A stretch of DNA of 64,000 nucleotides from an uncultured Planctomycetota bacterium (lineage in GTDB: Bacteria > Planctomycetota > Planctomycetia > Pirellulales > Thermoguttaceae): NCBI GenBank assembly GCA_963733145.1, contig CAVTCJ010000003.1, forward strand, positions 222,896-286,895, read 5' to 3'. Both the position numbers and the translations under genes were made by a program. The first letter of the stretch is position 1; each line of letters begins with the position of its first letter. The notes beneath the pieces are model-generated. The model did no database searches. It was not told where the DNA came from and worked only from the letters and a program-made list of their open reading frames with translations. Below are positions 2,566 to 46,861 of this stretch, piece by piece.

Positions 2566-5130
2566 TTACTCGTACTGCAGCGCGATCAGCAGATTCAGCC
2601 GGGCGGCGCGCTCGGCGGGGAGCCAGGCGGCGGCGATGATGACCGCCATGCCCGTGGCGAAGCAGATCACCAGCAGCGCGGGATGGATGACGAAGTCGAC
2701 CGAGTACCCCAGCACCGGCACCATGCAGAGGTTGGTGACGAAGGAGCCGACGGTTCCGCCGGCCACGCCAAGGCCCAGCCCGATCAGGCCGATAATGACC
2801 GCCTGGGCGAGGATCGTCTTGCGGACCTGGCGGCGGGTCATGGCCACCACGCGGAGCAGGGCCAGCTCGCGGGTCTGCTCCAGCACGTTCATCGTCAACG
2901 TGTTGGCGATGCCGAACGAGCCGACGACGAATCCCAGGGCGAGCAGTCCCCACAGGCTGGCGATGACGCCGTTCATCATGTTGTTCAGCCGCCGGCGGAG
3001 ATCGGCGAAGGAGTGGAGCATCAAGCCCGACTTTTCGCAGATCGGCTTGAGGAGTTTGCGGACGCTGTCGATTTGGCCCGGTTTGGCGTTGACGATGAAA
3101 GTGTCCACGTCGCCGATGTCCATCATGTGCCGGGCGGCCTTGCCCTGCATGTAGATCATCTTTCCGCCGGCCAGGTAGGCGGTGGCGGTGCCGGCCACGG
3201 TGAGCGTCTTGGGGCCCTTGCCGGTCTCGATGGTGATCTGGTCTCCGACGCGGGTGTGGGTGCGGTTGGCCAGCACGGTGCCGATGACGACTTCTCCTTT
3301 GTCCAGGCCTTTGCGGACTTCCTCGGGATTGCCGTCTTTCAGGGCCAGCGGCAATTCGTTGCCGCGGTCGAAATCGCGGACGAACATCGTCACGTACATC
3401 TTCCCCGCCTTGGGATCGGCGGTTTTCACCGAGGTGTTGATAGTGCTGATGGCGTCGACGTTGGCGACCCCTGCGACGGCGCGGATTTCAGCGCCGAGCG
3501 ATTCGGGCATGGGGGGCGATTGGCCCGATTTCAAGTCCGGGTTCATGCGGCGGATGATGAAATCGCCTCGAAACGTCTTGGCCTGCCAGGTGCGGATGTC
3601 GCTCACGTTGTTGAGGATGGTGGTTCCCAGGTTGGTGGCCGTGCTGACGGCGAAGTAGAGCAGTCCGATGGTCAGCGTGGTGCGGACCGTGCGGCGAAGG
3701 ATTTGCCGCTGGGCGATCTTTCCTTCCGTGTGGAAAAACGGGTGCAGCAACCAGGCCGCCAGCCGGCTCAGAGCGGTCAGCACGATCGGCACCAGCAGCA
3801 CGAAGGCAGTGGTGAAGATCACTCCGACGTAGGTAGTGAAAGAGATCGGCAAATAACCGACGATGCAGGCGGCCAGCGCGGAACCGGTCACCAGGAAGAA
3901 CGCCAGGCTGAACAGTACGTAGAGCAGCGGGAGGCGGCCGCGGGTCTTTAAGGGAACGAAGCGCATGCTCTCCAACGGCGAGATTCGGCTGGCGATCCAG
4001 GTGGGGATGAACATCGCCAGCAGCGGAGATGCCCGGCCCGAGCAGCGCGGCCAGGATGAACGTCCTGGGGCCGATTTGCAGCGGGGGCATGGGCGTCGAG
4101 TACACGCGGCTCATGGCGTCGGTGAGGAAATAGGCCCCGGCCAGTCCCAGCAGCGCAGCCGAGGACGGTGCCCACGAAGCCCATCGCCAGCCCTTCGAGC
4201 AGCAACATCCGCATGATTTGCCGGCGGGTGGCGCCGACCGCCCGCAGCACGGCCAATTGCCGGCGGCGCTCGCCGACGTTCATCAGGTAGGTGTTGAAGA
4301 TCGTGAACAGCCCGAGAACGATCATCAGCAAGTAGGCCATGTTCAGGCCGCTTTCGGCGGATTGCATGGTTTCCTTGGCCGAAGTGGGCGCGGGCCATCG
4401 GCGAGCGGACCGTCAGCCCGGCGGGCAGGATGCCGGCGATCTTCGGTTGCACGGCCTTTTCGTCGGCCGAGCCGGCCAGCACGACGCTGACTTGATTGAT
4501 GTAGCCGGCGCCCTCTTTGGCAAAGAAGTATTCGGCGGCGGGCAGGGGGAGGAAGATCACTCCGCCCTGGTTGAAGTTGGCGGCGCCCTGGGGCGAGAGC
4601 AGGCCGATGATGCGGAAATCCTTGACGCTGCCGCTGAGCCCGCCGCGGGTGGTGCCCAACTTGACTTCGTCGCCGACTTTGACGCCCAAGCCGTGAGCGA
4701 AGCCGGTCTCCAAGAGGGCGTCGTAGGGCTTGCTGTCCTTGCCGAAATACTCCCCTTCGTACAATTTATAGTCGCGGACCGCTTCGTCTTGCTTCGGGTC
4801 GATGCCCATCACCAGCAGGCTGACTTTGGCCTCTTTGAACCAGAGGATGGAGACTTTTTGCACGCTGGGGACGGCCGTTTTCACGCCCGGCACTTGCCCG
4901 ATGCGCTGGACGATGTCCTCGGGAAAGAAGCTGCCGTCCTCGGCGACGACCTCGAAGGCGGCGCGGCCGGCCATGCCTTCGTACATGTTCTGATAGGCCA
5001 GGTGAGTGGTGGTCGTGCCGATGTCGACGGCTACCATGGCGGCCACGCCGATGACGATGCTCAGCAGGGTGAGCGTTGCCCGGCCGGGGCGGTTCCTGAT
5101 CTCGCGGAGAGTGAATTTCCAGAGAAACAT
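2566..5130 (-). CDS. MacB/LolE-type FtsX-family ABC transporter permease (~850 aa, two FtsX domains), at least 3-4 apparent frameshifts
   Basis: N-terminal TM + periplasmic MacB-like domain in ORF 4111-5130; first FtsX helix LNMAYLLMIVLGLFTIFNTYLMNVGERRRQLAVLRAVGATRRQI in ORF 3948-4367; LLGLAGAYFLTDAMSRVYSTPMPP in a third frame; second FtsX domain intact in ORF 2566-4014. Frame changes at ~4380, ~4110, ~4020. Confidence 0.75.
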
Positions 5131-6393: not shown

Positions 6394-6475
6394 TCTAGCC
6401 CCGGCGTCGACGCCCGATGCGCGACCGAACGGGAAAAGGGCCCTTTCTGCCCGGCGTGGACGCCGGGGCTAAACG
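6394..6475. repeat. REP-like inverted pair (TCTAGCCCCGGCGTCGACGCCC ... CCCGGCGTGGACGCCGGGGCTAAAC)
   Basis: Same family as 8797-8879 and 15436-15519; each half is itself a GC hairpin. Confidence 0.65.
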
Positions 6476-6507
6476 GTTCTTTCTTCCAAGATCGATTGCC
6501 GCGGGCG

Positions 6508-7938
6508 CTATTTCGGCGGTTGCGGCTGCGGCGTGGTTTGCGGTTGCGGTTGCGGTTGAGCCGGCGGCGGCAGGCTTGGAAGCGGCTGGCCCTGTTGCGG
6601 CTGAGTCTTGCGCAGTTGATCCAACAGCGCCTTGGCGTCCTCGCGCTGGGCGAAGGGGGCGGTGGTGCTCAGCGCGCCTTGGAGCAAACGGATGGCGTCC
6701 GCATCGTGCTGACCGCGATCGGCCAGTACGCAAGCCAGATAATAAGCCGTCTCGGCGCTTAAGGATCCGCCGGAGACCGCCCTCCGCAGGGCGGCCTCGG
6801 CGTCCTGCAAGCGGCCGAGCTTGTAGAGGACCCAGCCGTAGGTCGAATAGGCGTCGGCCATTCGCGGATATTGCTTGACGTTGTTTTCGGCGTATTCCAG
6901 GGCGCGTTTCCGTTGTTCCGCGCCCTTTTGACCGGACAGCGCCAAGGCCAGGTTGTTGCTGGCGGCGAAATCGTTGGGCGATTGCAGGTGGGCATTCTCG
7001 AAATACTTTTCGGCCTTCGTGTAGTCCTTACGGAACAGAGCAATCACCCCGCGGAGAATCTTGGCCTGGTAGTAATTCGGATCGAGCTGCAGCGCGGCGT
7101 CCGCTTGTTTCGCGGCCTCTTCGAGTTGACCGTTTTCCCATGCCCATTGGGCGGCGACCAATCGGGCTTCGGCATTTCTGGGCGCGGAAGTCAAGGCCTT
7201 GACGAACCATTCGCCGGCAGTTTTCTGTTCGCCCGACTGGGCGTACCACCGGGCGATTACGGCCTCGGGCGGCAACATGTCGGTGCTGATCTTGGCCGCC
7301 GCCCGGAGCTTCTCCAAGGCCCCCTTCACGTCCTTCTGCTCGAACAGGCATCGAGCCAGTTGCTGCAAGGCCGGGACGCTCTTCGCGTCCAGTTTCAGCC
7401 AGGCCTCGAGATGTTTTTGGGCCTCGGTCCAGTTGCCGCGGGCCTCGGAGGTCGAGGCCAAGCCGCCGTAAAGCTGCGGCATCATCGCGTCCTTCCGCTT
7501 GGCGCTCCCCTTCCATTGCGCCAGCAGGCTCTGGGCCTTCTCGTACAGCAGCCGGGACTCGGCCAGCCGCCGCTCGCGCAGGGCGAGGTCGCCCAGGATC
7601 AGATACGCCTGCGGATCGTCGGGCGCATCGATCACCGCCCGCTCCAGCGAGTTCTGCACGCCCGCCAGATTGTTCGACTGGGCGAAAAATTGGGCCATGA
7701 TGACGTTCGGCGGCGGCAGGTTGGGATCTTTCTTTGCGGCCTTCTGCAACATCTCCAGCGCGCCGGCGTAATCGCGCTTGTTAAACTGCCCCACCGCGTC
7801 GGTCAACTCCTGCATTTGCGCCGGGGTTTCGGGGGCGGTCTTGATGCTGCCGGGGGCAATCGGCTCCGCGGCCAAATACGACGTCGCGCAGACCGGAAAC
7901 GAGACGACAACGGCGAAAAGTAGCGTGCGTATCATGAT
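6508..7938 (-). CDS. secreted tetratricopeptide-repeat protein with C-terminal PQ-rich tail
   Basis: Signal-like MIRTLLFAVVVSFPVCATSYLAA; multiple TPR-like helical repeats; tail PQPQPQTTPQPQPPK. Start chosen at MIRT (7935); the ORF extends to 8055. Confidence 0.8.
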   Translation of the reverse strand: MMIRTLLFAVVVSFPVCATSYLAAEPIAPGSIKTAPETPAQMQELTDAVGQFNKRDYAGALEMLQKAAKKDPNLPPPNVIMAQFFAQSNNLAGVQNSLERAVIDAPDDPQAYLILGDLALRERRLAESRLLYEKAQSLLAQWKGSAKRKDAMMPQLYGGLASTSEARGNWTEAQKHLEAWLKLDAKSVPALQQLARCLFEQKDVKGALEKLRAAAKISTDMLPPEAVIARWYAQSGEQKTAGEWFVKALTSAPRNAEARLVAAQWAWENGQLEEAAKQADAALQLDPNYYQAKILRGVIALFRKDYTKAEKYFENAHLQSPNDFAASNNLALALSGQKGAEQRKRALEYAENNVKQYPRMADAYSTYGWVLYKLGRLQDAEAALRRAVSGGSLSAETAYYLACVLADRGQHDADAIRLLQGALSTTAPFAQREDAKALLDQLRKTQPQQGQPLPSLPPPAQPQPQPQTTPQPQPPK

Positions 7939-26020: not shown

Positions 26021-26971
26021 TTAGGGCAACCTCTGGGCGAAGTACAACGCCGCGTAGATCTTCGGGCTAATCATCATGCCCTCTTGACGCTTCGATTGCA
26101 GCCACCCGTGTACCTCGTTGAGCGACACAACATGGACTCGGATGTCTTCGTTCTTGTCACCGCCGCCTGGGCCAACTTTTCGCGCATCCCTGGCCAGCAA
26201 CAACGTGTAGACTTCGTTGGTCAGGCCGGACGAACTCGGGCCCTCAAGCAAGTAGTCGAAGTGTGCTGCCTCATAGCCGGTCTCCTCGAACAACTCGCGG
26301 CGTGCCGCCTCCATCAGGTCTTCTTCCTTGCTCTCTGCCAGATCACCGACCAGTCCCGCTGGCAGCTCAATCACTCGACTTTCCAGTGGAATGCGATACT
26401 GCTCGATAAGCACCAATTCCTGCTTCTCTGTAATCGCTACGACCACCACAGCAGCAGAAGTATTCGTTCGCTCAGCCCACTCCCAACCGCAACGGCTGAG
26501 CAGGCGGATGAAACGCCCTTCTGCGAGAATCCGAGGTGGTTCCTTGCGATCGTTTGTGTCGGGTGCGGTACCAATGACAATCGAGTCGTAATGCGGGCCT
26601 TGATAGTCATCACCATAATAGACGTCGACAACCCGAATCCTCCCCTGAATGTTGTCATTGAAGTAATCCAGTTGCTCTGACGGCACCCATAGCTCTCGAT
26701 GCAAAGCGGAACCAACTTGGTGCTCCTCGAAGCGATTCAAATAGTCGGCTGGCAGATCGCACTCGACAACGAAGCCAACCTGCGTAGGTCGCCCAGCGGA
26801 ATCCTTGGTATTCCACTGACTGGCAATCTGTTGGGCGTATTCGCGCGTGAGCACGGGGTAGAAGATTGGTTGTCCTGGCAGTCGCGGGGGAAAGCGTTGC
26901 AGTCCTGTCGCCTGGATCAGTGCAAGTTCATCGAGTCCAACAGGACGATACAAGGTTCGTAGTTGTCTCAT
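26021..26971 (-). CDS. Nudix hydrolase (ADP-ribose pyrophosphatase-like) with an uncharacterised ~110-aa N-terminal domain
   Basis: Nudix box LPAGLVGDLAESKEEDLMEAARRELFEETGY; NudF-like pre-Nudix region RVVDVYYGDDYQG...AAVVVVAI; N-terminal MRQLRTLYRPVGLDELALIQATGLQRFPPRLPGQPIFYPVLTREYAQQIASQWN has no match I can name. Confidence 0.8.
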   Translation of the reverse strand: MRQLRTLYRPVGLDELALIQATGLQRFPPRLPGQPIFYPVLTREYAQQIASQWNTKDSAGRPTQVGFVVECDLPADYLNRFEEHQVGSALHRELWVPSEQLDYFNDNIQGRIRVVDVYYGDDYQGPHYDSIVIGTAPDTNDRKEPPRILAEGRFIRLLSRCGWEWAERTNTSAAVVVVAITEKQELVLIEQYRIPLESRVIELPAGLVGDLAESKEEDLMEAARRELFEETGYEAAHFDYLLEGPSSSGLTNEVYTLLLARDARKVGPGGGDKNEDIRVHVVSLNEVHGWLQSKRQEGMMISPKIYAALYFAQRLP

Positions 26972-26986
26972 AAGACTCCTCTCGTC

Positions 26987-27409
26987 TCATCGGTCTTCGT
27001 GTTGAACGTCACTGGCGTCCGCGCATCTTCGTTCCCACGGCACCAAGGAGTACCCAACACCATGGTAATCCTTTCCGAACACAGCCAGGGCGATGAACAA
27101 CACCGTCACCGGGGTTTGCACCACGAGAACTCCGGACCATGTGAACAGGTCAAGGGCCGACCATGTTCCGACATTAACAACAAAGACAGCGCTCCACAAT
27201 AGCTCGGGCTTCCGGGGAATGCGGAAGACATTACAGAACAGGAAGAAGTGGCCAAGAACAACCGGGAAGATGGCCGCCATCTCACCGAGCAGCGACCATG
27301 TGCCACATGTCACAGCCGCACAGAGTGCAATCGCAACTCCATCGGTAAGCGAGAACCGAAATCCGGCCGCCGGCCTCCAGTTCCACCATGAGCATGAGGA
27401 ATTATACAT
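26987..27409 (-). CDS. hypothetical small membrane protein (~4 TM helices)
   Basis: Hydrophobic segments AIALCAAVTCGTWSLLG, IFPVVLGHFFLFCNVF, LLWSAVFVVNVGTWSAL, VTVLFIALAVFG. Confidence 0.45.
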   Translation of the reverse strand: MYNSSCSWWNWRPAAGFRFSLTDGVAIALCAAVTCGTWSLLGEMAAIFPVVLGHFFLFCNVFRIPRKPELLWSAVFVVNVGTWSALDLFTWSGVLVVQTPVTVLFIALAVFGKDYHGVGYSLVPWERRCADASDVQHEDR

Positions 27410-28745
27410 GAAACCTTTTCCCTACGACATTCCCATCCCCAGCGAAGGTCAATTCCAGGCCACCAAAACTCCCACCGAAGTTCCTGATCCGCAGATCTCG
27501 GCAGATTATCTCAGTCGTGTCTCCATCATTGGCAACCTCAACTGCACGGTAGCCAGGCGACAGCTCGCACATTAAGCGGTATTCGATCACTTGATTGAGC
27601 CAGTTCACGTATTTGGAATCAAATGTCTGCCAACTTGTGGGTATCGTAGTTTCGCCGCGAATTGCACTCAACTCGAAAATCTGAACAACCTCTGCCTGCT
27701 CCCGACAGGCGAGAAAACGCCGCGGCGCAACCGCACTCGGGATCATGCTCAGCATCCCGGCGGGAGCTAAGCAAGCAGCACGACGATGCACCAGCCAACG
27801 CAGTATCCAATAGACAGCCACAAAAGTCCCATACGCCGCAGCCAAGGACGGCCGCACCATTTGCCCACCATGTGACTGAGCGAGGATGGCAATCAAGAAG
27901 CCGCTGCTGACAGTAATCATGATGCCGTCAATAAAGAACACCCATTCGGTGCACCATCGTTTCCGGCTCAGTGGCGCCAACAATGCCACACCATAGGTGT
28001 TGGTTGCATCCATCAGCGTATGCAGAAGCATTCCCGCTCCCAAGGCAACAGGTGCCCACATCTCGTCGATGCCGAACCATGCTAGCAGCGGCCAGAGCAG
28101 GATGGCCAGCCCAATTATCACAGGCAATGAATGCGTGTACGTCTGATGCCATCGTAGAAACGACACCTTGCCGAAAAGTCTGCTGAGCGAGTCGAGATCC
28201 GGCAATACAGACCCCAAGACGAAACAGCCCGCTGTCACCGGTGTGGCGTGAAGGAACGGACTGGCAATGATCGTGCCCGCCAGCCCGCATAGCACCAAGC
28301 CAAAATAGGCACAAGCGGACAGACACTGTCGGCTTGCGTGGGTTGTAAGACTGGACTCGGTGAAGTAGCGCACCAGTTTTTCCAGATCATTCGGAAAGTG
28401 GTGGGCATAACGGATCGGCACGGGGGCTAAACGCATGATTGATCCATTGCCACTAGCGTGCTCTGATTTATCTCCTGATTTTCTGGCGTCACCGGTCTCT
28501 GCGAACCGGCTCAGAGCCCACCGGGTGGTAATACCAATGTCGAAACAGTGGCCATTGACGGAGTATTTGCCGTCGCGCCACCAGGCAACATAGCGTCGGG
28601 CCTGATCATTGAGGTCCCAACCGATGCTGGCGATGCTGTCGGCCAAGGCCTGCCGCCACGGTGAAACCACCGCCGAACGGGTGTTTTCGGAAGAACAAAT
28701 GGAACACGGATTGGTGGTCGTGGTTTCCTGTCTTCCAATAGCCAT
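27402..28745 (-). CDS. chimeric ORF: C-terminal half of an ADP-ribosylglycohydrolase fused in frame to a YdjM-like (DUF457) membrane-bound metal-dependent hydrolase
   Basis: ARH part: [39 protein letters not shown]; YdjM part: [29 protein letters not shown] plus TM helices. The ARH N-terminal half is absent. Confidence 0.55.
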
Positions 28746-28962: not shown

Positions 28963-30576
28963 TCATTTCACATCGTGTAGATCGTCCCAACTCAGTCCGA
29001 AACGGCTGAGATATTTGCGCAGCCGGTCGGCGTCGTTTGGCGACTTCTTGCGTGTGCGAGAGACGTCGTACAGACGACGCCCGGCCTCGGAAAGCGTTTT
29101 CGATTGACGGCAGACGCGAATCGCTTCGGCAAGCTGAACGCCATCGAACCGATCCAACTCAGCCATTCTGTCGGGACCGAGTATCTCGACTAGCAGGCTT
29201 TCGTCTTTGTCTGGCGTCGAGCTTTTCCAGGCGACTTCCAGCCGCCAGATTTCCTCTTCGACCGTCTCGACGTTGATGCGATTGCCGGGAGCAAGGGTTG
29301 CCATTCGCATGACGGCCCCGTTCAGGTCACGGAAGTTTGCCCGCCACGTTGCTGCATCGGAAACGGCAAAATCAAGGAACCGGCGGCGAGCCTCTTTGTT
29401 AAACGTCACCTTGGTCCCGGTTTGGGCCGTGTATTGTTCCAACTCGTAATCCAGATTCGGCTCGATGTCTTCGTGACGCGAGGAAAGACCGGGAAGCCGA
29501 AAGGTCCACAGGTTGATGCGGGAAAGCAGGTCCTCGCGGAATTGTCCGTGGGCCACTTCCGCGGTCAGATCGCGATTGGTCCCGGCTATGAGTTGAAAAT
29601 CGCTTTGCACTTCTCGGTCCGAGCCGACGGGCAGAAATCGCCTTTCTTCGACCGCCCGTAAAAGCATGGCCTGCTCGTCGGCACCAAGTTCGCCAATTTC
29701 ATCGAGAAACAACATGCCGCCGTCGGCAGCCCGCAACAGACCGGGCCGATCGGTCGTGGCGCCGGTAAATGCACCCTTCATGTGGCCGAACAAAGCCGAC
29801 ATCGCCTGATCGCCGCGGACGGTGGCGCAGTTGACCTCGACGAACTGGCCGGCGACTTGCTGCCGTTGCCGCTTGAGTTCGTAGATGCGGCGTGCCAGTT
29901 GCGACTTGCCGGCGCCCGTAGGGCCGGTCAATAGCAACGGCGAGCTGCTGGCGATCACCACGCGCTCGATTCGGTCGATCAGGCGGTTGAAATCGGTATT
30001 GCGGGTGTCGATGCCGGACTTGAGGAACGACGTGGCCTGTTTCTGGTCCAGAGTGAATCGGGTCGCTAGGCGATCATACTTCGACAGGTCCAGGTCGATG
30101 ATCCGATAGGAACCGATCGGGTCTTGCTGATGTCGCCGGGCCGGGGGCGAGCACTGGAGCAGCTTGCCTGGCAAGTGACGCGATTCGGTCAGTAGGAACA
30201 GGCAGATTTGAGCGACGTGCGTGCCCGTGGTGATGTGAACCAGATAGTCTTCGGTCTCGGTGTTGAACGGATAGGCCCGGGCGAAATCATGCAATGCCGC
30301 ATACACCTCCTCAAAGTCCCACGGGTCTTTCATCTGAACCAAGTGGGTGCGGACCTCGGTCTCGGGCGAAACCGAGGTAATGTCGGCGGCAACCAACTGG
30401 GCCAGTTTTTCTTCCTTCGGCCCGTAGAGCAACTCAAAACGGTGAACCAGCAGGTTCTCATGCTGGCAGATCGAGACGCTCGGCCGCCACGAGACCCAGC
30501 GGTCTGCCGTTGTGCCGGCGTCCAATCGAGTGCCAAGCAATCCGACCACGACGTGTTTTGCGTTCTGATTATCCAT
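28963..30576 (-). CDS. rtcR: sigma54-dependent transcriptional regulator RtcR (CARF domain + AAA+ sigma54 activator + HTH)
   Basis: N-terminal CARF-like region; GPTGAGKSQLARRIY Walker A; GAFTGA sigma54-contact motif (KGAFTGATTDRPG); divergent from the rtcB operon. Confidence 0.9.
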   Translation of the reverse strand: MDNQNAKHVVVGLLGTRLDAGTTADRWVSWRPSVSICQHENLLVHRFELLYGPKEEKLAQLVAADITSVSPETEVRTHLVQMKDPWDFEEVYAALHDFARAYPFNTETEDYLVHITTGTHVAQICLFLLTESRHLPGKLLQCSPPARRHQQDPIGSYRIIDLDLSKYDRLATRFTLDQKQATSFLKSGIDTRNTDFNRLIDRIERVVIASSSPLLLTGPTGAGKSQLARRIYELKRQRQQVAGQFVEVNCATVRGDQAMSALFGHMKGAFTGATTDRPGLLRAADGGMLFLDEIGELGADEQAMLLRAVEERRFLPVGSDREVQSDFQLIAGTNRDLTAEVAHGQFREDLLSRINLWTFRLPGLSSRHEDIEPNLDYELEQYTAQTGTKVTFNKEARRRFLDFAVSDAATWRANFRDLNGAVMRMATLAPGNRINVETVEEEIWRLEVAWKSSTPDKDESLLVEILGPDRMAELDRFDGVQLAEAIRVCRQSKTLSEAGRRLYDVSRTRKKSPNDADRLRKYLSRFGLSWDDLHDVK

Positions 30577-30716
30577 TGGTATAAATACCTATCTCGTATT
30601 ATCGCCTATTAAGTATATCTGATCTGCATGGGCGTGCCAGATATCAATGCCGAAATATGCCATAACAGATTACGGCACAACGCTTTGCAGCGTGCTTTGT
30701 TGGGTGTTTCGTGAGT

Positions 30717-30733
30717 CTGGCACGAGGGCTGCT
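30717..30733 (+). promoter_or_regulatory. sigma54 (-24/-12) promoter for the rtc operon
   Basis: cTGGCACGagggCTGCTa fits TGGCACG-N4-TTGCW with correct GG-N10-GC spacing, oriented toward rtcB. Confidence 0.55.
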
Positions 30734-30804
30734 ATAGGATCATGCCAAGAAACAAAGATGCGACGCAAAAAAACACCCCCCGTAACCGATTTTCCGAGAA
30801 AGCA

Positions 30805-30879
30805 GTCCTTGGAGTGTGGCGGACACCATGCACGCAACTCTACGAAGGTTGAGGACCAGGTTCGACTCCTGGCAAGGAC
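30805..30879 (+). ncRNA. tRNA-like module 1 in the rtc operon leader (perfect acceptor and T arms, non-canonical anticodon region)
   Basis: Acceptor GTCCTTG/CAAGGAC, T arm CCAGG-TTCGACT-CCTGG, short D arm GTGT/ACAC; no foldable anticodon stem; no encoded CCA. Confidence 0.4.
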
Positions 30880-30980
30880 ATTTTGGAAGCAAGATGCGGC
30901 AGGACCAACGGCGCGACTCGCCCCGTCCTCCTATGAGGCGGTCGGCGGTGCGCGTTCCGTGCATGGGTTCTGACCGAAAG

Positions 30981-31052
30981 CCGTGTCAACCTGTGGTTAG
31001 CTCAGTGGGTAGAGCACCAGACCAAGAATCTGGCTGTGACGGGTTCGACTCC
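30981..31052 (+). ncRNA. tRNA-like module 2 in the rtc operon leader (canonical D, anticodon-like and T arms; imperfect acceptor stem)
   Basis: GCTC-AGTGGGTA-GAGC D arm, CCAGA-CCAAGAA-TCTGG, ACGGG-TTCGACT-CCCGT T arm; acceptor CTGTGGT vs ACCAACG has 2 mismatches; position 33 is C. Confidence 0.4.
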
Positions 31053-31448
31053 CGTACCAACGTCGCGGGCCGTAAAACAGCCCGCTACCAAGAAAGCCCG
31101 AGGGAGGCGGGCCAACGTGTGATCGGCCATCGGACTGCTGGCATGTCGGCGTTCGACATGCGGCGTCGATGGCAGCATTTCCGAGCGCCATGCAGTGCGT
31201 GGATACCGATTTTGTCAATCCTCGGCCTACCGGCGATGGATGTCCTGCGAGTTGCGATGGGGTTTGCCCCGTTGGCGACAAGCGTCACAAAACCGCCGTG
31301 TCGGCCGAAGGTCCTGCAGAAACTCAAACGGCACTCCGCACTCGTCCGTGTGATCACCGTTGGTTCCGCCGCCCAACGGCGTTGCCAAACAACAATCCAG
31401 TACACAATTGGAATGACGCAATAACGACCGCAGAAAGGAAGGTGCAGA

Positions 31449-32552
31449 ATGTTGACCAAAAGAATCCGTAAATACGAAGTGGGACTCCACTTCCGTGACG
31501 GCGAGTTCCGCGGCCTGCTCGACACTGGGCACCACTGGTTCTTCGATCCGTTGCGCAAGGTTCAAGTGGAGGTTGTCTCGCAGCGCAGTCCGTGGTTGAG
31601 CCATGAAAAGCTCGACGTGATGGTTAAGACCGGCGTTTTGAAGGACCGCGCCGTCGTGCTCGATCTGAAAGACAATCAGCGGGCACTGGTGTGGATCGAC
31701 GGGCGATTCAGTCACATTCTGCCGCCGGGCCTGTATGCCTACTGGACTGCGTTCCGTGACGTGGTTGTCCAAATCGTCGAGGCCGATGCCCAAAACATCC
31801 GCTTCCAACACAAGGATTATCAGGTCATCGTCCGTTCGGCGATGGCCGACCGCGTGTTGGACACCATCGCCGTCGAGCACGGACAAGTCGGTGTGTTGTT
31901 CCAGGACGGCAACTACGTGGAAACCCTGCCGCCCGGAAAGTACGCCTTCTGGAAGAACGTGGCCAAGGTCGCGCTGGTGCCGGTGGACCTGCGCGAAACG
32001 ATGTTGGACATTGGTGGTCAAGAGATCATGACCGCCGACAAGGTCACATTGCGGCTCAATGCGGTTGTCACATTCCGGGTGACGGATGCCCACAAGGCCC
32101 TTAGCACGACCGACGACATTCGCCAGGCGTTGTATCGCGAGGCCCAGTTGGCCTTGCGGGCGGTGATCGGCTCACGCGAACTCGACCAGTTCTTGGCCGA
32201 CAAGGATGTTGTGGCCAAGGAGTTGGAAGTTACGGTTCGCCAGCGAGTAACGTCGTTGGGCTTAGAAGTCGTTTCACTTGGCATCCGCGACGTGATCTTG
32301 CCCGGCGACATGAAGGATTTGATGAACAAGGTTACGGAGGCGAAGAAGGTGGCCGAGGCCAACTTGATCGCCCGCCGTGAGGAAACGGCGGCCATGCGCA
32401 GCCAGGTCAACACGGCAAAGCTGCTGGAAGGCAATCCGACATTGATGCGGCTCCGTGAATTGGAGGTTTTGGAGAAGGTCGCAGCCAACAGCAAGTTGAA
32501 CGTACTGTTGGGCGAAAAGGGCCTCGCCGAGCGAGTTGTCAACCTGCTCTGA
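31449..32552 (+). CDS. SPFH/band-7 domain protein (no N-terminal TM) encoded first in the rtcB operon
   Basis: C-terminal SPFH core (TADKVTLRLNAVVTFRVTD..ALRAVIGSRELDQFL..GLEVVSLGIRDVILP) plus coiled-coil tail; N-terminal duplicated PPG(L/K)YA(Y/F)W beta modules; RBS gaaaggaagg. Confidence 0.85.
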   Translation: MLTKRIRKYEVGLHFRDGEFRGLLDTGHHWFFDPLRKVQVEVVSQRSPWLSHEKLDVMVKTGVLKDRAVVLDLKDNQRALVWIDGRFSHILPPGLYAYWTAFRDVVVQIVEADAQNIRFQHKDYQVIVRSAMADRVLDTIAVEHGQVGVLFQDGNYVETLPPGKYAFWKNVAKVALVPVDLRETMLDIGGQEIMTADKVTLRLNAVVTFRVTDAHKALSTTDDIRQALYREAQLALRAVIGSRELDQFLADKDVVAKELEVTVRQRVTSLGLEVVSLGIRDVILPGDMKDLMNKVTEAKKVAEANLIARREETAAMRSQVNTAKLLEGNPTLMRLRELEVLEKVAANSKLNVLLGEKGLAERVVNLL

Positions 32553-32646: not shown

Positions 32647-34185
32647 GTGCGAATTGATACAATGGTCATAAAAGAAAGCCAAAGACTCAGCATGACTACT
32701 GAAAACAATCTCACACTGATCCCCACTGGCGAAGCCACGGCCATGCTGCCCGTAGGCAACGGCAGGCCGATCACCGTCATCGGCACTAAAGCGATTCACG
32801 CGACGTTTGACGAGCAAACACTTCGGCAGGCCGTCCATTCGCGGCTCGCGCCGGGGGTGACCGACGTGGTACTGAATCCTGACGCCCACGTGGGCTATGG
32901 GGCGCCGATCGGCTGCGTGATGGTCTCGCCGTCGCACATCTATCCCGGTCCGGTCGGGGTGGACATCAAGTGCTCGATGAGCCTGCTGCAATTGAACGTG
33001 CCGGCCGACGCCATCGCTGAGCGACCGATCCGCCGGGCTTTGATCAACGCCATCTGCGATCGCACTCCCACGGGGCCGGGCATGGGACAACGAAACGTGC
33101 CGAAGTCCCGCCGGGTTGATGCCACTCTTGGCCATCAGGTTGTGATTGAAGGTGCCTCGCCTGCTGTGTGCAACGCGCTGGGTATTCCGACCGACTGGGC
33201 CGCGCGGTGCGAAGATGCCTTCCACACCGGACACGACGAAACGCAAGACGCCCTGGCTGATCGTATCGATCACCTGTTGGCCGTCGGCGCCTTCCCGAAG
33301 TTTGCCGAGAAGATCACGCAACTCGGCTCCTACGGCGGCGGGAACCATTTTGGCGAGTGCGAGGTGGTTCAAGTGGCCGACAACCAGCGGGCACGCGAAG
33401 TCGCCAGCGTTTTCGGTCTGATCGATGGCGACGTGGCGTTCCTCTCGCACTGCGGCTCGCGGGGACTCGGCTACAATCTGGCCTCCGGCCAATTCCGCAC
33501 GCTGCAACAGAAGTTCGAGACTTGGAGCATCCCGCTACCCGGCGGAGATCGGGAGTTGGTCTACGCGCCGCTGGGTACGCCCGAGGCGGACGATTACTTG
33601 GACGACATGGCCTTGGGCGGCAACTTCGCCACGGTCAACCATTTGCTGATCAACGCCCTGGTGCTGGAAGCCTTTCAGGAGGTCATCCCCGGCGTCACGG
33701 GGCAGTTGGTCTACTTCATCAGCCACAATATCGCGCGGAAAGAGGTGGTGGACAATCGGCTGGCGTGGGTCCATCGCAAGGGCGCAACCCGGGCGTTTCC
33801 CGCCGGCCATCACGCCCTGAAGAACACGCCGTTTGCCGAAACCGGCCATCCAATCCTCTTGCCTGGCAATCCCCAGGCAGGATCGGTCGTCATGGTGGCC
33901 GACGAAGGTGCGGTGAAAAGCTGCTATAGCGTCAACCACGGCGCCGGCCGCCAAATGGGTCGCAAAGCGGCAATTCGCGAACTCGATCAGAAGGCGATCG
34001 ACAACCAGTTCGACGCGAACGATATTTTGACAAATTGCCGGCAGTATCCCAAGGACGAGGCCCCGGTGGCCTACAAGGATTTCGACGAAGTCGTTCGGTC
34101 AGTCACAGGCGCCGGATTGGCAAGCGAGGTGGCAAGGCTTCGGGCAAAGTTCGTCGTCAAAGACGCAAGCAAGGCCGACGATTGA
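32647..34185 (+). CDS. rtcB: RNA-splicing ligase RtcB
   Basis: Full-length RtcB with metal-binding histidines and the NHGAGR motif region (SVNHGAGRQMGRKAA). Alternative start at MTTENNL (32692). Confidence 0.95.
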   Translation: MRIDTMVIKESQRLSMTTENNLTLIPTGEATAMLPVGNGRPITVIGTKAIHATFDEQTLRQAVHSRLAPGVTDVVLNPDAHVGYGAPIGCVMVSPSHIYPGPVGVDIKCSMSLLQLNVPADAIAERPIRRALINAICDRTPTGPGMGQRNVPKSRRVDATLGHQVVIEGASPAVCNALGIPTDWAARCEDAFHTGHDETQDALADRIDHLLAVGAFPKFAEKITQLGSYGGGNHFGECEVVQVADNQRAREVASVFGLIDGDVAFLSHCGSRGLGYNLASGQFRTLQQKFETWSIPLPGGDRELVYAPLGTPEADDYLDDMALGGNFATVNHLLINALVLEAFQEVIPGVTGQLVYFISHNIARKEVVDNRLAWVHRKGATRAFPAGHHALKNTPFAETGHPILLPGNPQAGSVVMVADEGAVKSCYSVNHGAGRQMGRKAAIRELDQKAIDNQFDANDILTNCRQYPKDEAPVAYKDFDEVVRSVTGAGLASEVARLRAKFVVKDASKADD

Positions 34186-34212: not shown

Positions 34213-35256
34213 ATGAAAGAATCTATCCTCACAATCGACGGCTCCCACGGTGAAGGCGGCGGGCAGGTCCTCCGTTCCTCGCTAGCGATGTCCCTGGTCA
34301 CCGGCCGGCCGTTTGTCATCGAGAACATCCGTGCCGGACGTAAGAAGCCGGGACTCATGCGACAGCACCTCACGGCCGTGAATGCTGCCACGGAGGTCAG
34401 CCATGCCGAGGTCGAAGGGGCCGTGATCGGATCGTCGCGGTTGGAGTTTCGGCCGGGCAAGGTCTCCTCCGGCAACTACACGTTCAGTGTGGGCACGGCG
34501 GGCAGCACGACCCTAGTACTACAAACGGTGTTGCCGGCACTGCTCCTGGCCGAGAGCGAGTCGAATCTGATCCTTGAAGGCGGCACTCACAATCCGTTCG
34601 CGCCGCCGTTGGATTTCCTGATGAAGAGCTATCTTCCCTTGGTGAACCGAATGGGGCCAACGGTTGAGACCCAACTGATCCGACCGGGGTTCTATCCGGC
34701 CGGCGGCGGGCAGTTCACTGTCCGCATTCGGCCAACCCAGCAACTTGGGCGGCTGGAACTCACGGAGCGGGGTGAAATCCGGGCCCGCCGTGTCCGGGCG
34801 GTAGTGGCCAATCTGCCCCGCCAGATTGCCGAGCGGGAATATCGCGCCATTGCTCAGAAGACTGGCTGGGATGAAGGATGTTTTTCGGTCGAAGAAGTGC
34901 GCGAATCGCGCGGGCCGGGCAACATCGTTCTCATCGAGTTGGAGTCCGAGCGCATTACCGAAGTATTCACCGGCTTTGGTCAGATCGGCGTGCGGGCCGA
35001 AGCTGTAGCCATGCGTGTGCTCGACGAAGCTCGCGCTTATCTGGCTGCCGGAGTACCGGCTGGCAAGTACCTCGCCGATCAACTGCTGCTTCCTTTGGGG
35101 ATCGGTGCCCATCTAGGCACTGGCGGTGGCGCCTTTCGGACGATGGCACTGTCGCTCCATGCCACGACGCACATCGAGATTCTCCACCGATTCCTCGAAC
35201 TCGATGCCAAAGTCGAGCAAAACGGCCGAGATGACTTTGTTGTCCAGATCGGCTGA
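34213..35256 (+). CDS. rtcA: RNA 3'-terminal phosphate cyclase
   Basis: MKESILTIDGSHGEGGGQVLRSSLAMSLVTGRPFVIENIRAGRKKPGL is the canonical RtcA N-terminus with the adenylated His region; 347 aa. Confidence 0.95.
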   Translation: MKESILTIDGSHGEGGGQVLRSSLAMSLVTGRPFVIENIRAGRKKPGLMRQHLTAVNAATEVSHAEVEGAVIGSSRLEFRPGKVSSGNYTFSVGTAGSTTLVLQTVLPALLLAESESNLILEGGTHNPFAPPLDFLMKSYLPLVNRMGPTVETQLIRPGFYPAGGGQFTVRIRPTQQLGRLELTERGEIRARRVRAVVANLPRQIAEREYRAIAQKTGWDEGCFSVEEVRESRGPGNIVLIELESERITEVFTGFGQIGVRAEAVAMRVLDEARAYLAAGVPAGKYLADQLLLPLGIGAHLGTGGGAFRTMALSLHATTHIEILHRFLELDAKVEQNGRDDFVVQIG

Positions 35257-35689
35257 ATCAGCGCCTCTGACGCAGCGAACGAGTTGAATCCGGGCGTTGC
35301 AAGCGAGACGCCAACGTGGCAATCATCAGGCATGGGCTATTCCGAATCGGTCTCATCCAGGAATTCGCGAAACAACTCGAATTCTGCCTGAGCCTCGATC
35401 CCAAGCTGATCGAGATCGTCGAAATCGATCTCCGGCATGAGGCCCCCGTGCTCGACATACCGTCCCAGAACCTTCCTGGAGGAAACAACCCACCGCGATT
35501 CTTTTGCCTCTTCAGGCAACTCAACCAGATCCGGATCGACAATCGCTGCAACCCCAGACACGGTCATCGAGATTTCTGGAATATGGCAGCTTGGCATCGG
35601 GTCGTTCTCGTAGCCTCCTTGCTCGTGGAGTTGCCGCGGGTCAAACTCGAAGATCACCGCTGTCTTTCCTGCACGAGCAAGCCTGATCC

Positions 35690-35900
35690 AGTTATGGTGG
35701 ATTCGCTCCTCCGGCGCGCGGCACTGGTAATACCCATTATCACCGTTGGGGCTCTTGTGCTCGCCTTGGCGCAAAACTTTGGAGCGTGGGTGGTTGGTTC
35801 GCAGTGGCAAGATGCAATAGCATTTGTTGTTTTGCTGGCGTTTCTGGTTTTCCGACCAGAAGGCGTGATGGGAAAGAAGGTCAGGGAAGCGACTGTGTGA
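35690..35900 (+). pseudogene. 3' fragment of a branched-chain amino-acid ABC permease (LivH/LivM-like C-terminus)
   Basis: IITVGALVLALAQNFGAWVVGSQWQDAIAFVVLLAFLVFRPEGVMGKK matches the LivH C-terminal helix and RPxG motif. Upstream part of the ORF is non-protein-like. Confidence 0.5.
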
Positions 35901-43647: not shown

Positions 43648-45426
43648 TCACGAGTGAAAAGCCGCCTTCAATCCTTCCTGTGATGCCCAGCGGCTGAGTA
43701 CGTCTTTCTCTTTTTCCGTTGCAAGCCGATTACTCTTCCCGCGAACTTGACGGATTTCCCTCCGTTGGTTGTTGACCTCAACAGTCACAAGCGGCTCAAC
43801 CCCTTCTCCCGTTTCAACCTCCATCGACCAAATTGAACACACGTTCTTATAACAGGAATTGGCATAACTCGCGACACAATGGCGCATTCGACGACCTTCC
43901 GCGATCAGTTCCTGACTACTGAGAAGCTCTCGAATCCGCCACACCCTCATGTTTTGCGACTCCTTTGTCCCTTCAATGAACTTGTAGTCGTGGAACGGTG
44001 ATTTTCGCCATTGTAGGCGTCCGCCGGCGGTTTCACGCCCTAGTTGTCGATGCCATTGGTTGACGGCACGCAAGAGTGAAGCGACGGTTCGCCCGTGCAT
44101 GGAAAAGTTGGGCTGTTCCGGCCCAAGTTCTTGTGCCACGCCGCGCTCGATGAAAGCGACGCGGGGTTCATACCGTTGATTCCAGATATAATCGACAATC
44201 GGCTGGACGTGGACGAGATCAAGCATGGGATTCCGCACGAAGAACCGAATGACGCTCAGCCAAAACTCGTTGTCCCGAAAGTCCTGAACGAGTCGTGTCT
44301 CGCGTAACGCATCGGCCAAGCGACGATCACCGCCGAGGGCGATGACCTGCCCCCATCGAAACGCCGCCTCGATGGAATAGGTTGCGGGCGACTCCGAAAA
44401 ATGGTGGGCCATCTTCTTCGTAAACGGAATTGGCAATCCTTCGGCCGTTTGGATGTTTTTGCCGGCCCCAATATGCTTGAACCACGATTGTTGGATGGCA
44501 TTTCCTTGCAGCCAAGCCTTGTCCATGAAAAGAGGCACATCGTAAATCGCCCACAAGTGACGCGATAGCGAAGAAAACTGCCGCTCGGGGTTGTGCGACT
44601 TCGGCGTCCATTGTTCGAGCGGATTGATCCACTCGGCGGCGTCCTTGCTGAGTTCGATGACTCCTCGAACGTGGGCTGCGGACTTCAGCAGTTTTGATTT
44701 TGCATCGACATAACGTAGCATCGCCAAAAGAGCATCTCGATCGACGGCACGCTCAAAGCCCGCATGGATTTCAGAGGCTATGGTCGTATCCAATTCGTCC
44801 TTCGTCAGTTCACCGCGATGGATCAGCGATAGGAGCGAACGATTCTTTCGTGTCTTTTTGGCGTCTGGCAATCGTGAGGCAGCCTGTCGGCTCTTTTCCT
44901 TCTTCTCCGCTTTGGTGGGGACATTTGGATGAACGAGGTGCCTCAACTTGAGGTTTTCGGCCATCTCCCGAAAATTGCCGGCAGCCAAGCCTTCTGCCTC
45001 GCATCGCAACTGGTGAAATAGCTGAATCAAGGGATGTGCCCCATCCAGTTTCAAGGTGCGAAGCCGTCGTTTGCCAAGCCGCCGGTCAAGCATCCCGATT
45101 GTCCGAATGAGAACGTCCTTTGATTGTAGGATGTCATCTATCGACATCGTGAGATAACGTATCATCGCATGGCGAAGACTACCCTTGGCGCACAGAGACA
45201 CATAGTCGGCAAATGGTTTCGGCAAATCCGGTTGATCGACATAGTTTCGCAACATCCATTCATACCAGTGCGGCATGTTGACGATTTCTTGGCCATCAAC
45301 GGTAATCCAATTTCGGCCTTCTTCATCGTGCATTCCGTGATAGCCCGTCTCATGGAGCCGTACACGTCCTTTCACGCTGTCGGCGAACATATCCTCAACA
45401 CGTTTGCGCAATTGGCTCCACTGCAT
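43648..45426 (-). CDS. PcfJ-like domain protein (592 aa)
   Basis: C-terminal LIAEGRRMRHCVASYANSCYKNVCSIWSMEV matches the PcfJ-like E-G-x-x-M-x-H-C-V signature; N-terminal ~450 aa have no assignable domain. Confidence 0.65.
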   Translation of the reverse strand: MQWSQLRKRVEDMFADSVKGRVRLHETGYHGMHDEEGRNWITVDGQEIVNMPHWYEWMLRNYVDQPDLPKPFADYVSLCAKGSLRHAMIRYLTMSIDDILQSKDVLIRTIGMLDRRLGKRRLRTLKLDGAHPLIQLFHQLRCEAEGLAAGNFREMAENLKLRHLVHPNVPTKAEKKEKSRQAASRLPDAKKTRKNRSLLSLIHRGELTKDELDTTIASEIHAGFERAVDRDALLAMLRYVDAKSKLLKSAAHVRGVIELSKDAAEWINPLEQWTPKSHNPERQFSSLSRHLWAIYDVPLFMDKAWLQGNAIQQSWFKHIGAGKNIQTAEGLPIPFTKKMAHHFSESPATYSIEAAFRWGQVIALGGDRRLADALRETRLVQDFRDNEFWLSVIRFFVRNPMLDLVHVQPIVDYIWNQRYEPRVAFIERGVAQELGPEQPNFSMHGRTVASLLRAVNQWHRQLGRETAGGRLQWRKSPFHDYKFIEGTKESQNMRVWRIRELLSSQELIAEGRRMRHCVASYANSCYKNVCSIWSMEVETGEGVEPLVTVEVNNQRREIRQVRGKSNRLATEKEKDVLSRWASQEGLKAAFHS

Positions 45427-45435
45427 AATTGTCGC

Positions 45436-46861
45436 TCAAGTGTCGAGTGTGACGTTTGCTCCAAGTTTGAACACTCCCATCTGCGTCGGCGGTCCCCACT
45501 CGGCGTGTTCCGGCCCAACTGGCCGAAACTCGACGGAATAACCGAATCGGCTCGGCCACGCCCGTCGCCCAAGCCCGGAACTCCTCCCGAGTCCACTCGA
45601 AACGGTGGTCTTCGTGCCGAAACGCACCGGCGGCAAGGTTGGGCCAGCTTGCATTGTACTCGCGGTTGGGCGTGGTGAGCACGATCGTCGTTGGACGGGC
45701 AAACTCGAACACGACCCGCTCGAAGGCGGCCAGACGCGGCGGATCGAGATGCTCGATTACTTCGACGACGGCCGCCGCATCGAAGCCGGCGAGACGCTTG
45801 TCACGATACATCAGCGAACCGTGCATCAACCGGATGCGCTCGCGTTGGCGCGGCGGCAGGTCGTCCATTCGCAATCGGGACGCGGCGATTTCCAACGGGC
45901 GGATCGACACGTCCATGCCCACGATCTCCTCGAACTGCTTCTCCTTGAGCAATTCCCGCAGCAGCCGGCCCTCGCCGCAGCCGAGGTCGAGCACCCGTTT
46001 GGCGCCGGTCGCCTTCAACACGGCTGCAACCGAACTGAGCCGTTCTTCGTTGAGGCTGATTGGCTTTTCCAGCGATTCTTCGCGGCTCACCGCGCGGGCC
46101 TCGGCAAGAAAATCCTCCGCCGGTTGATCCTCCTGCTCGACAAGCCGCTCGATCGCCTGCCGGGCAAGGCTGGGCCGATGCTTCAAGTAGCGGCGGACAA
46201 TCGCCTCTCGCTTCGGGTGCGACGCCAGCCAGCCCTCGCCCTGTTTCAACAGCTTCTCCAACTCCTCGAAACCCACGTAATAATGCTTGAAATTGTCGAA
46301 AACTGGCATCAAAACGTACAAATGCGTGAGCAATTCGCTGAGCGTCGTGGTTTTCGACAGTGTTACCGAGTAGTAGGGACTTGGCCCCCAGTCGGGAAAC
46401 GTCTCGTCGAGCGGATAGCGGACGGCCTCGATCTCATATCCCAGCGGATCGAAGACCTCGTGCAAGAAGTCCTCTCCGCCCCGGCAGGGAAGCACTTCGA
46501 TCGCGGCGACCAGTGGAATCGGCGTCCCGGCCAACTCCGGCCGCTCCTTCGAGCGCCCATTCAGCGCCGGGCCGAGCACCTGTGCAATCGCCACGCTCAT
46601 AAACGACGACGCCACGTAAGGCCGGTCGTTGACGTACTGGGCCAAGACCGTGTGCGTCAAGCCGCTCTTTCCCCGCACCATCGCCACCGGGTCCACGTCC
46701 AGGAGCAGGGCGGCGGTGCAGCGGTCCTCCGTCGCCTCGGTATAGAACACGTGGGCGCTGCCGAAACTGAGCGGAAAACTCTGGCACCGCGCCGGGTTCT
46801 TGTGCAGCAGATAGCCCAGGTCGGTCGCCGGCCGGTGCGTGGATGTAATTGTCAGCAACAT
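45436..46861 (-). CDS. hen1: bacterial Hen1 RNA 3'-terminal 2'-O-methyltransferase, one apparent frameshift near the C-terminus
   Basis: MLLTITSTHRPATDLGYLLHKNP is the characteristic bacterial Hen1 N-terminus; SAM-MTase motifs VLDLGCGEGRLL, AAVVEVIEHLD; C-terminal YSVEFRPVGPEHAEWGPPTQMGVF in the adjacent frame. Confidence 0.85.

Follow-up and report, generated by a model that had tools for sequence, protein, structure and literature searches.

What lies between the promoter and the first gene of an RNA-repair operon when some 700 nt separate the two? The question was raised by a 64,000-nt stretch of DNA from an uncultured Planctomycetota bacterium (assembly GCA_963733145.1, contig CAVTCJ010000003.1, positions 222,896 to 286,895 of the forward strand), hereafter the window. 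Its rtc locus is ordered rtcR (minus strand), sigma54 element, untranslated leader, SPFH gene, rtcB and rtcA, and with a divergent RtcR, a -24/-12 promoter motif, rtcB and rtcA it reads as an RtcR/sigma54-controlled rtc operon. A sequence-only reading had described rtcR as divergent from SPFH-rtcB-rtcA with the first coding sequence at 31449, and the Pfam assignments confirm this frame. That reading had also noticed two tRNA-like elements in the leader sharing GGTTCGACTCC, and the presence of both was confirmed. Its treatment of them as an equivalent pair did not stand: the first (module 1) resembles a tRNA-Arg gene, and only the second (module 2) belongs to the SPFH-linked element, as a domain of a far larger structured RNA of about 470 nt (30920-31385). 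We favour, with modest confidence, the view that this leader supplies the RNA component of an SPFH/Band-7 cassette for RNA repair, of the b7a-tRNA kind, and that it is induced by RtcR to act with the SPFH protein when tRNAs are repaired.

The composite RNA stands ahead of this SPFH gene in 80 or more loci. A search with aligned SPFH homologues gave 80 genome loci, mostly from Planctomycetota metagenome-assembled genomes (MAGs) and at protein identities of 66-86%, and in a BLAST comparison of the leader with the SPFH loci, window positions 30893-31386 were homologous in most of them to the stretch directly upstream of SPFH. The structural evidence comes from BLAST, pattern searches and alignment (68 loci, with a column profile over 61). 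From its 5′ edge the RNA consists of a variable hairpin, a near-invariant block (block A), module 2, a short hairpin and a long irregular stem domain (Table 1). The 5′ hairpin was missed by RNAalifold; inspection of the alignment showed different sequences in other loci that are still able to pair. Besides block A, further blocks with 80-99% conservation were found at 31096-31112, 31121-31129, 31171-31210, 31322-31338, 31347-31356 and 31365-31382.

Covariation supports much of the fold. For the cloverleaf and the hairpin that follows it, 97.1% of the cells over the 68 loci held standard pairs, against 25-42% when the partners were slid, and both sides had changed in 116 cells, against 9-15 in the slid controls; none of 500 shuffles reached the observed values. 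The short hairpin at 31065-31085 contributes many double changes at 4 of 5 pairs, and in L081 it shows a compensatory change to GCGAGC/GCUCGC (loci other than the window are given by such numbers). Long-range covarying helices join 31106-11 to 31365-70, 31126-29 to 31170-73, 31175-78 to 31348-51 and 31194-97 to 31332-35. A local hairpin at GCCCGAGGGAGGCGGGC had also been considered, and was superseded by the first of these pairings. RNAalifold folded 30920-31400 into a consensus of 112 pairs, mostly in one irregular stem (31096-31380) with its branch (31126-73); 87% of its cells were canonical, against 35-44% after shifting, with 788 compensatory cells against 228-297. Moreover, the structure was tested out of sample on 12 metagenomic or viral-contig sequences that were absent from its derivation. 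All 17 cloverleaf pairs were intact in every one of the 12, and 53-77 of the roughly 80 long-stem pairs held, against 21-38 when shifted, in sequences with identities to the window as low as 50-59%, including the 50%-identical L086.

Table 1. Features of the rtc locus, in window coordinates
Feature	Position	Strand	Description or basis
rtcR	28963-30576	-	Pfam RtcR 1.4e-83 and Sigma54_activat 2.6e-49; RtcR/CARF-type N-terminal domain, sigma54-dependent activator
sigma54 -24/-12 element	30718-30733	+	TGGCAC-N5-CTGCT (TGGCACGAGGGCTGCT); sequence reading
Module 1, tRNA-Arg(ACG)-like	30805-30880	+	7-bp acceptor stem, G8, enlarged D loop, anticodon arm 30835-30851, T arm, discriminator A
Variable hairpin, 5′ edge of the element	30923-30941	+	stem CCG(U)CCUC/GAGGCGG
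Near-invariant block A	30950-30974	+	GYGUGUUCCGnnnAUGGGUUCUGAC; 80-99% column conservation, 61 loci
Module 2, tRNA-shaped domain	30991-31064	+	D, anticodon and T arms intact; acceptor stem 3-4 bp; C33; triplet at 31024-31026
Hairpin with A-rich loop	31065-31085	+	GCGGGC/GCCCGC
Long irregular stem domain (285 nt)	31096-31380	+	branch hairpin 31126-31173; covariation
SPFH ribosome-binding site	31436-31442	+	AGGAAGG; sequence reading
SPFH/Band-7 ("slipin") gene	31449-32552	+	Pfam Band_7, residues 142-312
rtcB, RNA ligase	32647-34185	+	Pfam RtcB 3.5e-100
rtcA, RNA 3′-phosphate cyclase	34213-35256	+	Pfam RTC 7e-74

Module 2 gave the single ARAGORN call in the whole window, as "tRNA-Leu(aag)". The sequence-only reading had rightly described its D, anticodon-like and T arms, its imperfect acceptor stem and its C33, with coordinates (30981-31052) that were about 10 nt off. 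The Rfam tRNA model matched it at 30994-31059 (46 bits, E 1e-6, gathering score 29); since only model positions 4-67 were aligned, the match does not include the acceptor stem. That stem has two mismatches in seven pairs in the window, and the family consensus is 3-4 bp long. No partner that would complete it, such as an upstream GGUYGG pairing with ACCAAC, was supported, and only the adjacent 4 bp covary; full acceptor stems do occur in L086 and in Burkholderia. The nucleotides that shape the tRNA L are conserved across the 68 loci (U8, A14, G18G19 and the T loop UUCGAnU), and position 33, a C in the window, is U33 in 42 of the 68 sequences. The triplet in the anticodon position is free to vary: 26 distinct triplets were counted in 65 seven-membered loops, and entropy there reached 1.7-1.9 bits, where the remainder of the domain averaged 0.47 bits; the 7-nt loop size is retained. 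Because of these many triplets and of an acceptor stem of 3-4 bp without a supported alternative partner, we read module 2 as a tRNA-shaped RNA and not as a decoding tRNA.

The linkage to SPFH was found from both sides. In 69 of the 84 SPFH loci a same-strand match to module 2 precedes SPFH by no more than 1.7 kb, mostly by 390-620 nt. A degenerate form of block A was used to scan a metagenome collection, and the exact form a viral one; of the 121 matches, 21 had the full element (20 metagenomic, one viral) and the others were due to chance. Where a true element had 1 kb or more of sequence downstream, SPFH followed on the same strand in 15 of 16 cases, 530-620 nt on. No gene downstream of SPFH was conserved across the loci, and the "families" that crude open reading frame (ORF) calls suggested near SPFH were mostly artefacts over tRNA arrays or antisense to SPFH.

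Long same-strand tRNA arrays lie upstream of the cassette in relatives, with up to 36 tRNAs within 5 kb and 39-40 array tRNAs at two metagenome loci (L195 and L119). Their recurring order is ...Ser-Arg-His-[HNH gene]-Trp-Thr-Arg-Arg-Arg-Arg-Cys, then the element, then SPFH; the HNH endonuclease gene encodes about 198 aa and occupies a fixed site between tRNA-His and tRNA-Trp (for example L003 ~1650-2231, L005 ~3060-3661 and L084 7960-8616, with 13 more loci). For the 55 loci with at least 3 kb upstream, 28 have 10 or more tRNAs, 9 have 3-9 and 18 have 0-2. Such clusters correspond to the L-arrays (Santamaria-Gomez et al. 2021, PMC8421152; Tran et al. 2016, PMC4758250), which are horizontally transferred, occur in seven phyla including Planctomycetes, are associated with an HNH endonuclease and rtcB in cyanobacteria, and are induced by translational stress in Anabaena (PMC8421152). 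The relatives share with them the 20-40 same-strand tRNA genes and the HNH gene. The window itself, with one ARAGORN call in 64 kb, is not an L-array; it differs in retaining one array tRNA only and in its RtcR/sigma54 control, where Anabaena has a direct-repeat system. The array tRNAs look unusual (L001-L084, e.g. L005 55-4379): 37% of the ARAGORN calls lack U8, 15% have C33 and no CCA is encoded. Position 8 is G in Cys, Arg-GCG, Arg-TCG and Ile and A in Ser-GCT and Thr-GGT, and the Leu calls (CAA/GAG/UAG/UAA) are 75-76 nt long and hence have no long variable arm. Two complete array-element-SPFH cassettes are present in some genomes, namely L003 and L005 (CAWDRV010000004.1, 50 kb apart) and L004 and L076 within one MAG.

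Module 1 is the array tRNA that the window has kept. Its 7-bp acceptor stem had been recognised by the sequence-only reading; the statement that it has no anticodon stem was mistaken, as the arm is formed by CAACU/GGUUG (30835-39/30847-51) around a CUACGAA loop with U33 and the anticodon ACG. The best match of module 1 was an array tRNA-Arg(gcg) in 31 of 40 loci, at 74-85% identity and with G8 and the D stem in common; this orthologue, tRNA-Arg(GCG), is the member immediately preceding tRNA-Cys. Compared with the array orthologues, module 1 has an enlarged D loop, and its anticodon has gone from GCG to ACG with compensatory changes in the anticodon stem; tRNA-Cys is lost from the window lineage. 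ARAGORN called tRNA-Arg(acg) for the orthologue of module 1 in L081 and made no call for module 1 in the window, where the Rfam scores were 23.1 bits for tRNA (gathering score 29) and 23.3 bits for mascRNA, also below threshold. Read in this way, module 1 is a predicted complete cloverleaf orthologous to an L-array tRNA-Arg, and not an acceptor/T-arm minihelix.

The order rtcR-leader-SPFH-rtcB-rtcA is repeated at L081, L207 and L208, where the SPFH protein shares 93-97% identity with that of the window (at L208, rtcR and rtcB were called as fragments), and the comparison with these relatives measures the constraint on the leader. Between the window and L081/L207, identity was 65-67% at SPFH third codon positions and 62-64% in the spacer upstream of the promoter, against 94% for the promoter, 95-96% for module 1, 94% for block A, 96% for module 2 and 81-92% for the rest of the leader to ~31380. 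The long stem was 81-84% identical, against 62-67% at these neutral proxies, and in close relatives module 1 was 95-99% identical, against the third-position value. The few substitutions keep the stems paired. Both modules are under strong purifying selection. Two leader ORFs (30816-31424 and 31169-31471) were considered as genes and rejected; the leader holds no coding gene, because 1-nt and 5-nt indels shift their frames in the 93%-identical L081.

The promoter is conserved as well. The sequence-only reading had pointed to a -24/-12 element at 30717-30733; TGGCACGAGGGCTGCT is present there, starting one base later, and is 94-100% identical in L081, L207 and L208, against 62-79% in the spacer upstream. 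Over the 84 SPFH loci and 13 metagenome or viral element loci, this motif was found upstream of the cassette only where rtcR is adjacent, at the window, L081 and L086; L207 and L208 stood outside that scan and conserve the motif by alignment. A divergent rtcR, as in the window, was likewise found at L081, L207, L086, the Burkholderia locus L210 and the Citrobacter locus L213.

An RNA of this kind had been predicted before. The abstract of Burroughs and Aravind from 2016 is said to name SPFH/Band-7 modules and "a novel tRNA-like molecule" as potential scaffolding cofactors. According to a later summary, they predicted the b7a-tRNA upstream of Band-7 next to RtcB, and it is thought to be functionally redundant with the YrlA RNA (10.1101/312249). 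A 2026 preprint credits the same paper with implicating in RNA repair both homologues of the major vault protein (MVP) and non-coding RNAs that share operons with them and with RtcB (PMC13404743). In line with that prediction, the element lies immediately upstream, on the same strand, of a soluble SPFH/Band-7 gene, and the window copy sits in an rtcB-rtcA operon under RtcR, where a scaffold protein is proposed to have it as its cognate RNA, much as Ro has Y RNA. The suggestion of the sequence-only reading that the leader yields a tRNA mimic thus agrees with the b7a-tRNA proposal insofar as SPFH plus mimic replaces Rsr plus Y RNA. Compared with the b7a-tRNA as the citing summaries describe it, the tRNA-like part here lies within a ~470-nt RNA that also comprises an invariant block and 285 nt of covarying stem, its acceptor stem is 3-4 bp and its triplet unconstrained, and the Planctomycetota cassette usually lacks rtcB and stands at the 3′ end of long tRNA arrays. 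The b7a-tRNA has no Rfam family. We assign the window to the predicted b7a-tRNA/Band-7 class, an assignment made from sequence and gene order.

In the mechanism that we propose, activated RtcR would fire the sigma54 promoter and give a transcript through module 1, the ~470-nt RNA, SPFH, rtcB and rtcA; in Salmonella the published trigger of RtcR is tRNA halves with 2′,3′-cyclic phosphate ends (PMC7790460). We infer such co-transcription, and that module 1, array-derived and with a full acceptor stem, is probably excised by tRNA processing enzymes. The structured RNA would fold with its tRNA-shaped domain beside the invariant block and the long stem with its conserved internal loops. The acceptor stem being only 3-4 bp, that domain is proposed not to be aminoacylatable. 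The RNA might then bind an oligomer of the soluble, vault-protein-like SPFH protein, as Y RNA binds Ro60, and the particle could present, recruit or protect tRNA-shaped substrates for RtcB and RtcA.

Several points weigh against this reading. The rtcB/RNA-repair association was found at the window and at L081, L206, L207, L208, L001, L002, L086 and the Burkholderia locus L210, but most Planctomycetota loci carry the RNA and SPFH with no rtcB, rtcA or rtcR nearby; the conserved partnership is therefore RNA plus SPFH, often with a tRNA array, and not RNA plus RtcB. In addition, no tRNA-like element was detected by Rfam or ARAGORN at the enterobacterial rtcR-slipin loci (E. coli, Citrobacter). 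Finally, the b7a-tRNA is described as experimentally unvalidated in 10.1101/312249.

The alternative that survives best, although we consider it unlikely, is that the leader acts in cis: the tRNA-shaped domain and stem would be cleavage signals (for RNase P/Z and RNase III) that separate upstream tRNAs from the SPFH mRNA and fix where its 5′ end lies, with no trans-acting RNA. Such a role would suit the place of the element, which is always between same-strand tRNA genes and the SPFH start, and the plus strand of the leader downstream of the sigma54 promoter, which has neither an intrinsic terminator with a U run nor a sigma70-like promoter. The long imperfect duplex could plausibly be cut by RNase III, and the weak mascRNA match of module 1 points the same way. 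However, blocks that are 80-99% identical while the SPFH proteins are 67-86% identical are constrained beyond the need of a cleavage site, and an acceptor stem of 3-4 bp is a poor substrate for RNase P. The element is also retained without any upstream tRNA at L086, as well as at the 18 of 55 loci with 0-2 tRNAs. Moreover, the long stem ends 55 nt before the ribosome-binding site; these 55 nt are poorly conserved, and the site itself lies outside the conserved structure.

Less probable again is a decoy or sensor for anticodon nucleases, in which the tRNA-shaped domain absorbs tRNA-cleaving toxins or is cut into a cyclic-phosphate fragment that activates RtcR. The sequence-only reading, for its part, had raised a possible sensing of the leader RNAs by the CARF domain of RtcR. 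A hypervariable triplet within a near-invariant domain of constant 7-nt loop size would fit a decoy, though a functionless triplet explains the free variation equally well. The ligand of RtcR in Salmonella is the 5′ tRNA half ending in 2′,3′-cyclic phosphate, and a role as competitive inhibitor has been suggested for YrlA; in the same work, however, YrlA was not cleaved (PMC7790460). A sponge role has similarly been suggested for L-array tRNAs (PMC8421152). Against the sensor stand the need for expression before induction and the lack of rtcR at most element loci.

The Y-RNA-like identity offered by the sequence-only reading was not borne out. A true Y RNA of the YrlA/YrlB family, with a Ro60/Rsr partner encoded elsewhere in the genome, is highly improbable in our view. 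The rsr-yrlBA-rtcBA systems (Chen et al. 2014, PMC4201824; 10.1101/312249) do resemble the window in having an operon non-coding RNA with a tRNA-mimic domain, RtcR/sigma54 control and rtcB and rtcA as neighbours; the tRNA-like domain beside a long stem is superficially like YrlA, and the Burkholderia locus L210 gave a weak YrlA match (21 bits, E 0.24, gathering score 69). In the window, however, 30500-31500 held no YrlA or Y_RNA match at E<=10, and a scan of the leader with Rfam at a permissive threshold returned tRNA-type matches only, with no YrlA, Y_RNA, GOLLD or ROOL. The partner gene is SPFH, to which the RNA is linked across genomes; the operon has no rsr (as had been noticed, its genes being SPFH, RtcB and RtcA by Pfam), and no TROVE domain was found among the 16 ORFs scanned in the window (10 of them further large ORFs beyond the operon). 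The topologies differ too: in YrlA the acceptor end is closed, and the counterpart of the anticodon stem is kinked and leads into the Ro-binding stem (10.1101/312249), whereas module 2 has a truncated acceptor stem and an intact, closed anticodon hairpin, with the long stem forming a domain of its own on the 3′ side. As for two functionless pseudo-tRNAs left by deletion of an L-array, the orthology of module 1 to an array tRNA-Arg, the absence here of the tRNA-Cys that follows it in arrays, and its sub-threshold Rfam score and missing ARAGORN call would suit such decaying remnants, but this too is very unlikely, because both modules are 95-96% identical where neutral sites stand at 62-67% (about 65%), the changes in module 1 preserve pairing (some compensatory, relative to the array orthologues), and module 2 is conserved with its flanks and with covariation in some 80 loci. 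These tests contradict both of these last readings.

The SPFH protein fits a partnership with the RNA. It contains no hydrophobic segment (maximum Kyte-Doolittle value over 19 residues, 1.31) and should therefore be soluble, unlike classical stomatins. Its AlphaFold2 (AF2) model (mean predicted local distance difference test, pLDDT, 81) shows N-terminal five-stranded beta units, the SPFH domain and long helices. In Foldseek searches of the PDB, stomatin was the best match over the SPFH part (~210 columns), and only MVP chains aligned over ~425 columns (E 1e-11 to 2e-9, query TM-score (TMq) 0.37-0.46). On the basis of the model, the protein would share with the eukaryotic vault its beta-repeat domains, an SPFH "shoulder" and a long helix, and the pairing with a small structured RNA. 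In contrast, it has 367 aa and two to three repeats, where the vault protein has ~800-860 aa and nine, and the structured RNA is unrelated in sequence to vault RNAs.

A bolder proposal, which we regard as a speculative one with little probability behind it, is that the RNA and the vault-like SPFH protein are the conserved terminal cassette of L-arrays, themselves horizontally mobile, and form a vault-like ribonucleoprotein that stores, shields or hands over the spare, unusual tRNAs during attack by tRNA-cleaving toxins, feeding RtcB where it is present. The tRNA-shaped domain would then be a built-in tRNA surrogate, and the window a minimal derivative with one spare tRNA-Arg. As far as we could check, the larger covarying RNA, the unconstrained triplet and the short acceptor stem apparently go beyond the b7a-tRNA prediction, as do the identity of module 1 and the place of the RNA-SPFH pair as a 3′-terminal L-array cassette in Planctomycetota, mostly without rtcB. 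The texts of PMC8421152 and PMC4758250 mention neither SPFH, Band 7, stomatin or slipin nor a structured RNA at the 3′ end of the array, and a literature search pairing array and SPFH terms returned no paper with both among its 10 top-ranked results. The b7a-tRNA/Band-7 pair, a nine-year-old untested prediction, now has concrete RNA boundaries and a covariation-supported structure far larger than a tRNA, with invariant nucleotides defined as targets for mutation. Two puzzles, the cryptic long tRNA arrays and the soluble vault-like SPFH proteins of RNA-repair loci, are joined in one physical cassette in many Planctomycetota, and in two or more divergent lineages RtcR/sigma54 has taken control of this cassette. 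Should the RNA-protein particle exist, bacteria would have in it an equivalent of Ro/Y RNA, possibly of the vault, for which inducer, operon and substrates are all defined.

One divergent locus is L086 (63% SPFH identity), where rtcR (minus strand) is followed by TGGCACACTGGTTGCT 121 nt before block A, the element, SPFH, rtcA and rtcB, with no upstream tRNA. Tandem tRNA-like modules upstream of SPFH also recur outside Planctomycetota. At the Burkholderia multivorans locus L210, rtcR (59% identical), a sigma54-like motif and tRNA-like elements precede SPFH and RtcB; the tRNA-like part (4111-4226) pairs an acceptor/T-arm minihelix with a full tRNA-like element downstream of it (44 bits), which has the same GGTTCGACTCC. 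At the Photobacterium locus L214, a sigma54-like motif is followed by two tandem tRNA-like elements (2126-2263), the first a full tRNA and the second matching model positions 4-67 only, and then SPFH. Of these two loci, L210 was the only one where tblastn located rtcR and RtcB. The enterobacterial variant (L213 448-4401; L209 4983-6907) consists of rtcR, a leader of ~450-530 nt, slipin and a nucleotidyltransferase gene, inserted beside lysC; it has no rtcB, and a lone GGTTCGATTCC was found at L209:4797. PaFlo8 of P. aeruginosa is reported to lie within the rtc locus there (PMC13086221). No SPFH homologue was found in the phage collection. One contig classed as viral in IMG/VR (L085, IMGVR_UViG_3300007072_000340, 94 kb) carries the HNH gene, at least nine tRNAs, the element and an SPFH gene 82% identical; it may represent a phage, a prophage or a misclassified contig. 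In a relative with 87% identity, the gene after SPFH encodes a TIR-domain protein in place of rtcB (L082 4755-6557; L083 4526-6460).

Other genes near the operon were also noted. A 194-aa ORF immediately after rtcA (35316-35900, plus strand) has no Pfam match. About 10 kb from the rtc operon lies a second RNA-repair gene of the Hen1 type (45395-46861, minus strand), with Pfam Hen1_L at 2.5e-110 and a methyltransferase domain; its neighbour (43648-45426, minus strand) has SF0329 and PcfJ-like domains, with no obvious Pnkp. Finally, a fusion of an ADP-ribosylglycohydrolase with a YdjM membrane domain (27402-28745, minus strand) and a NUDIX protein (26021-26971, minus strand) directly adjoin rtcR, and L081 has an ADP_ribosyl_GH gene (6406-6909) after rtcA; the ADP-ribosylglycohydrolase and NUDIX neighbours may hint that this repair locus involves ADP-ribose chemistry.

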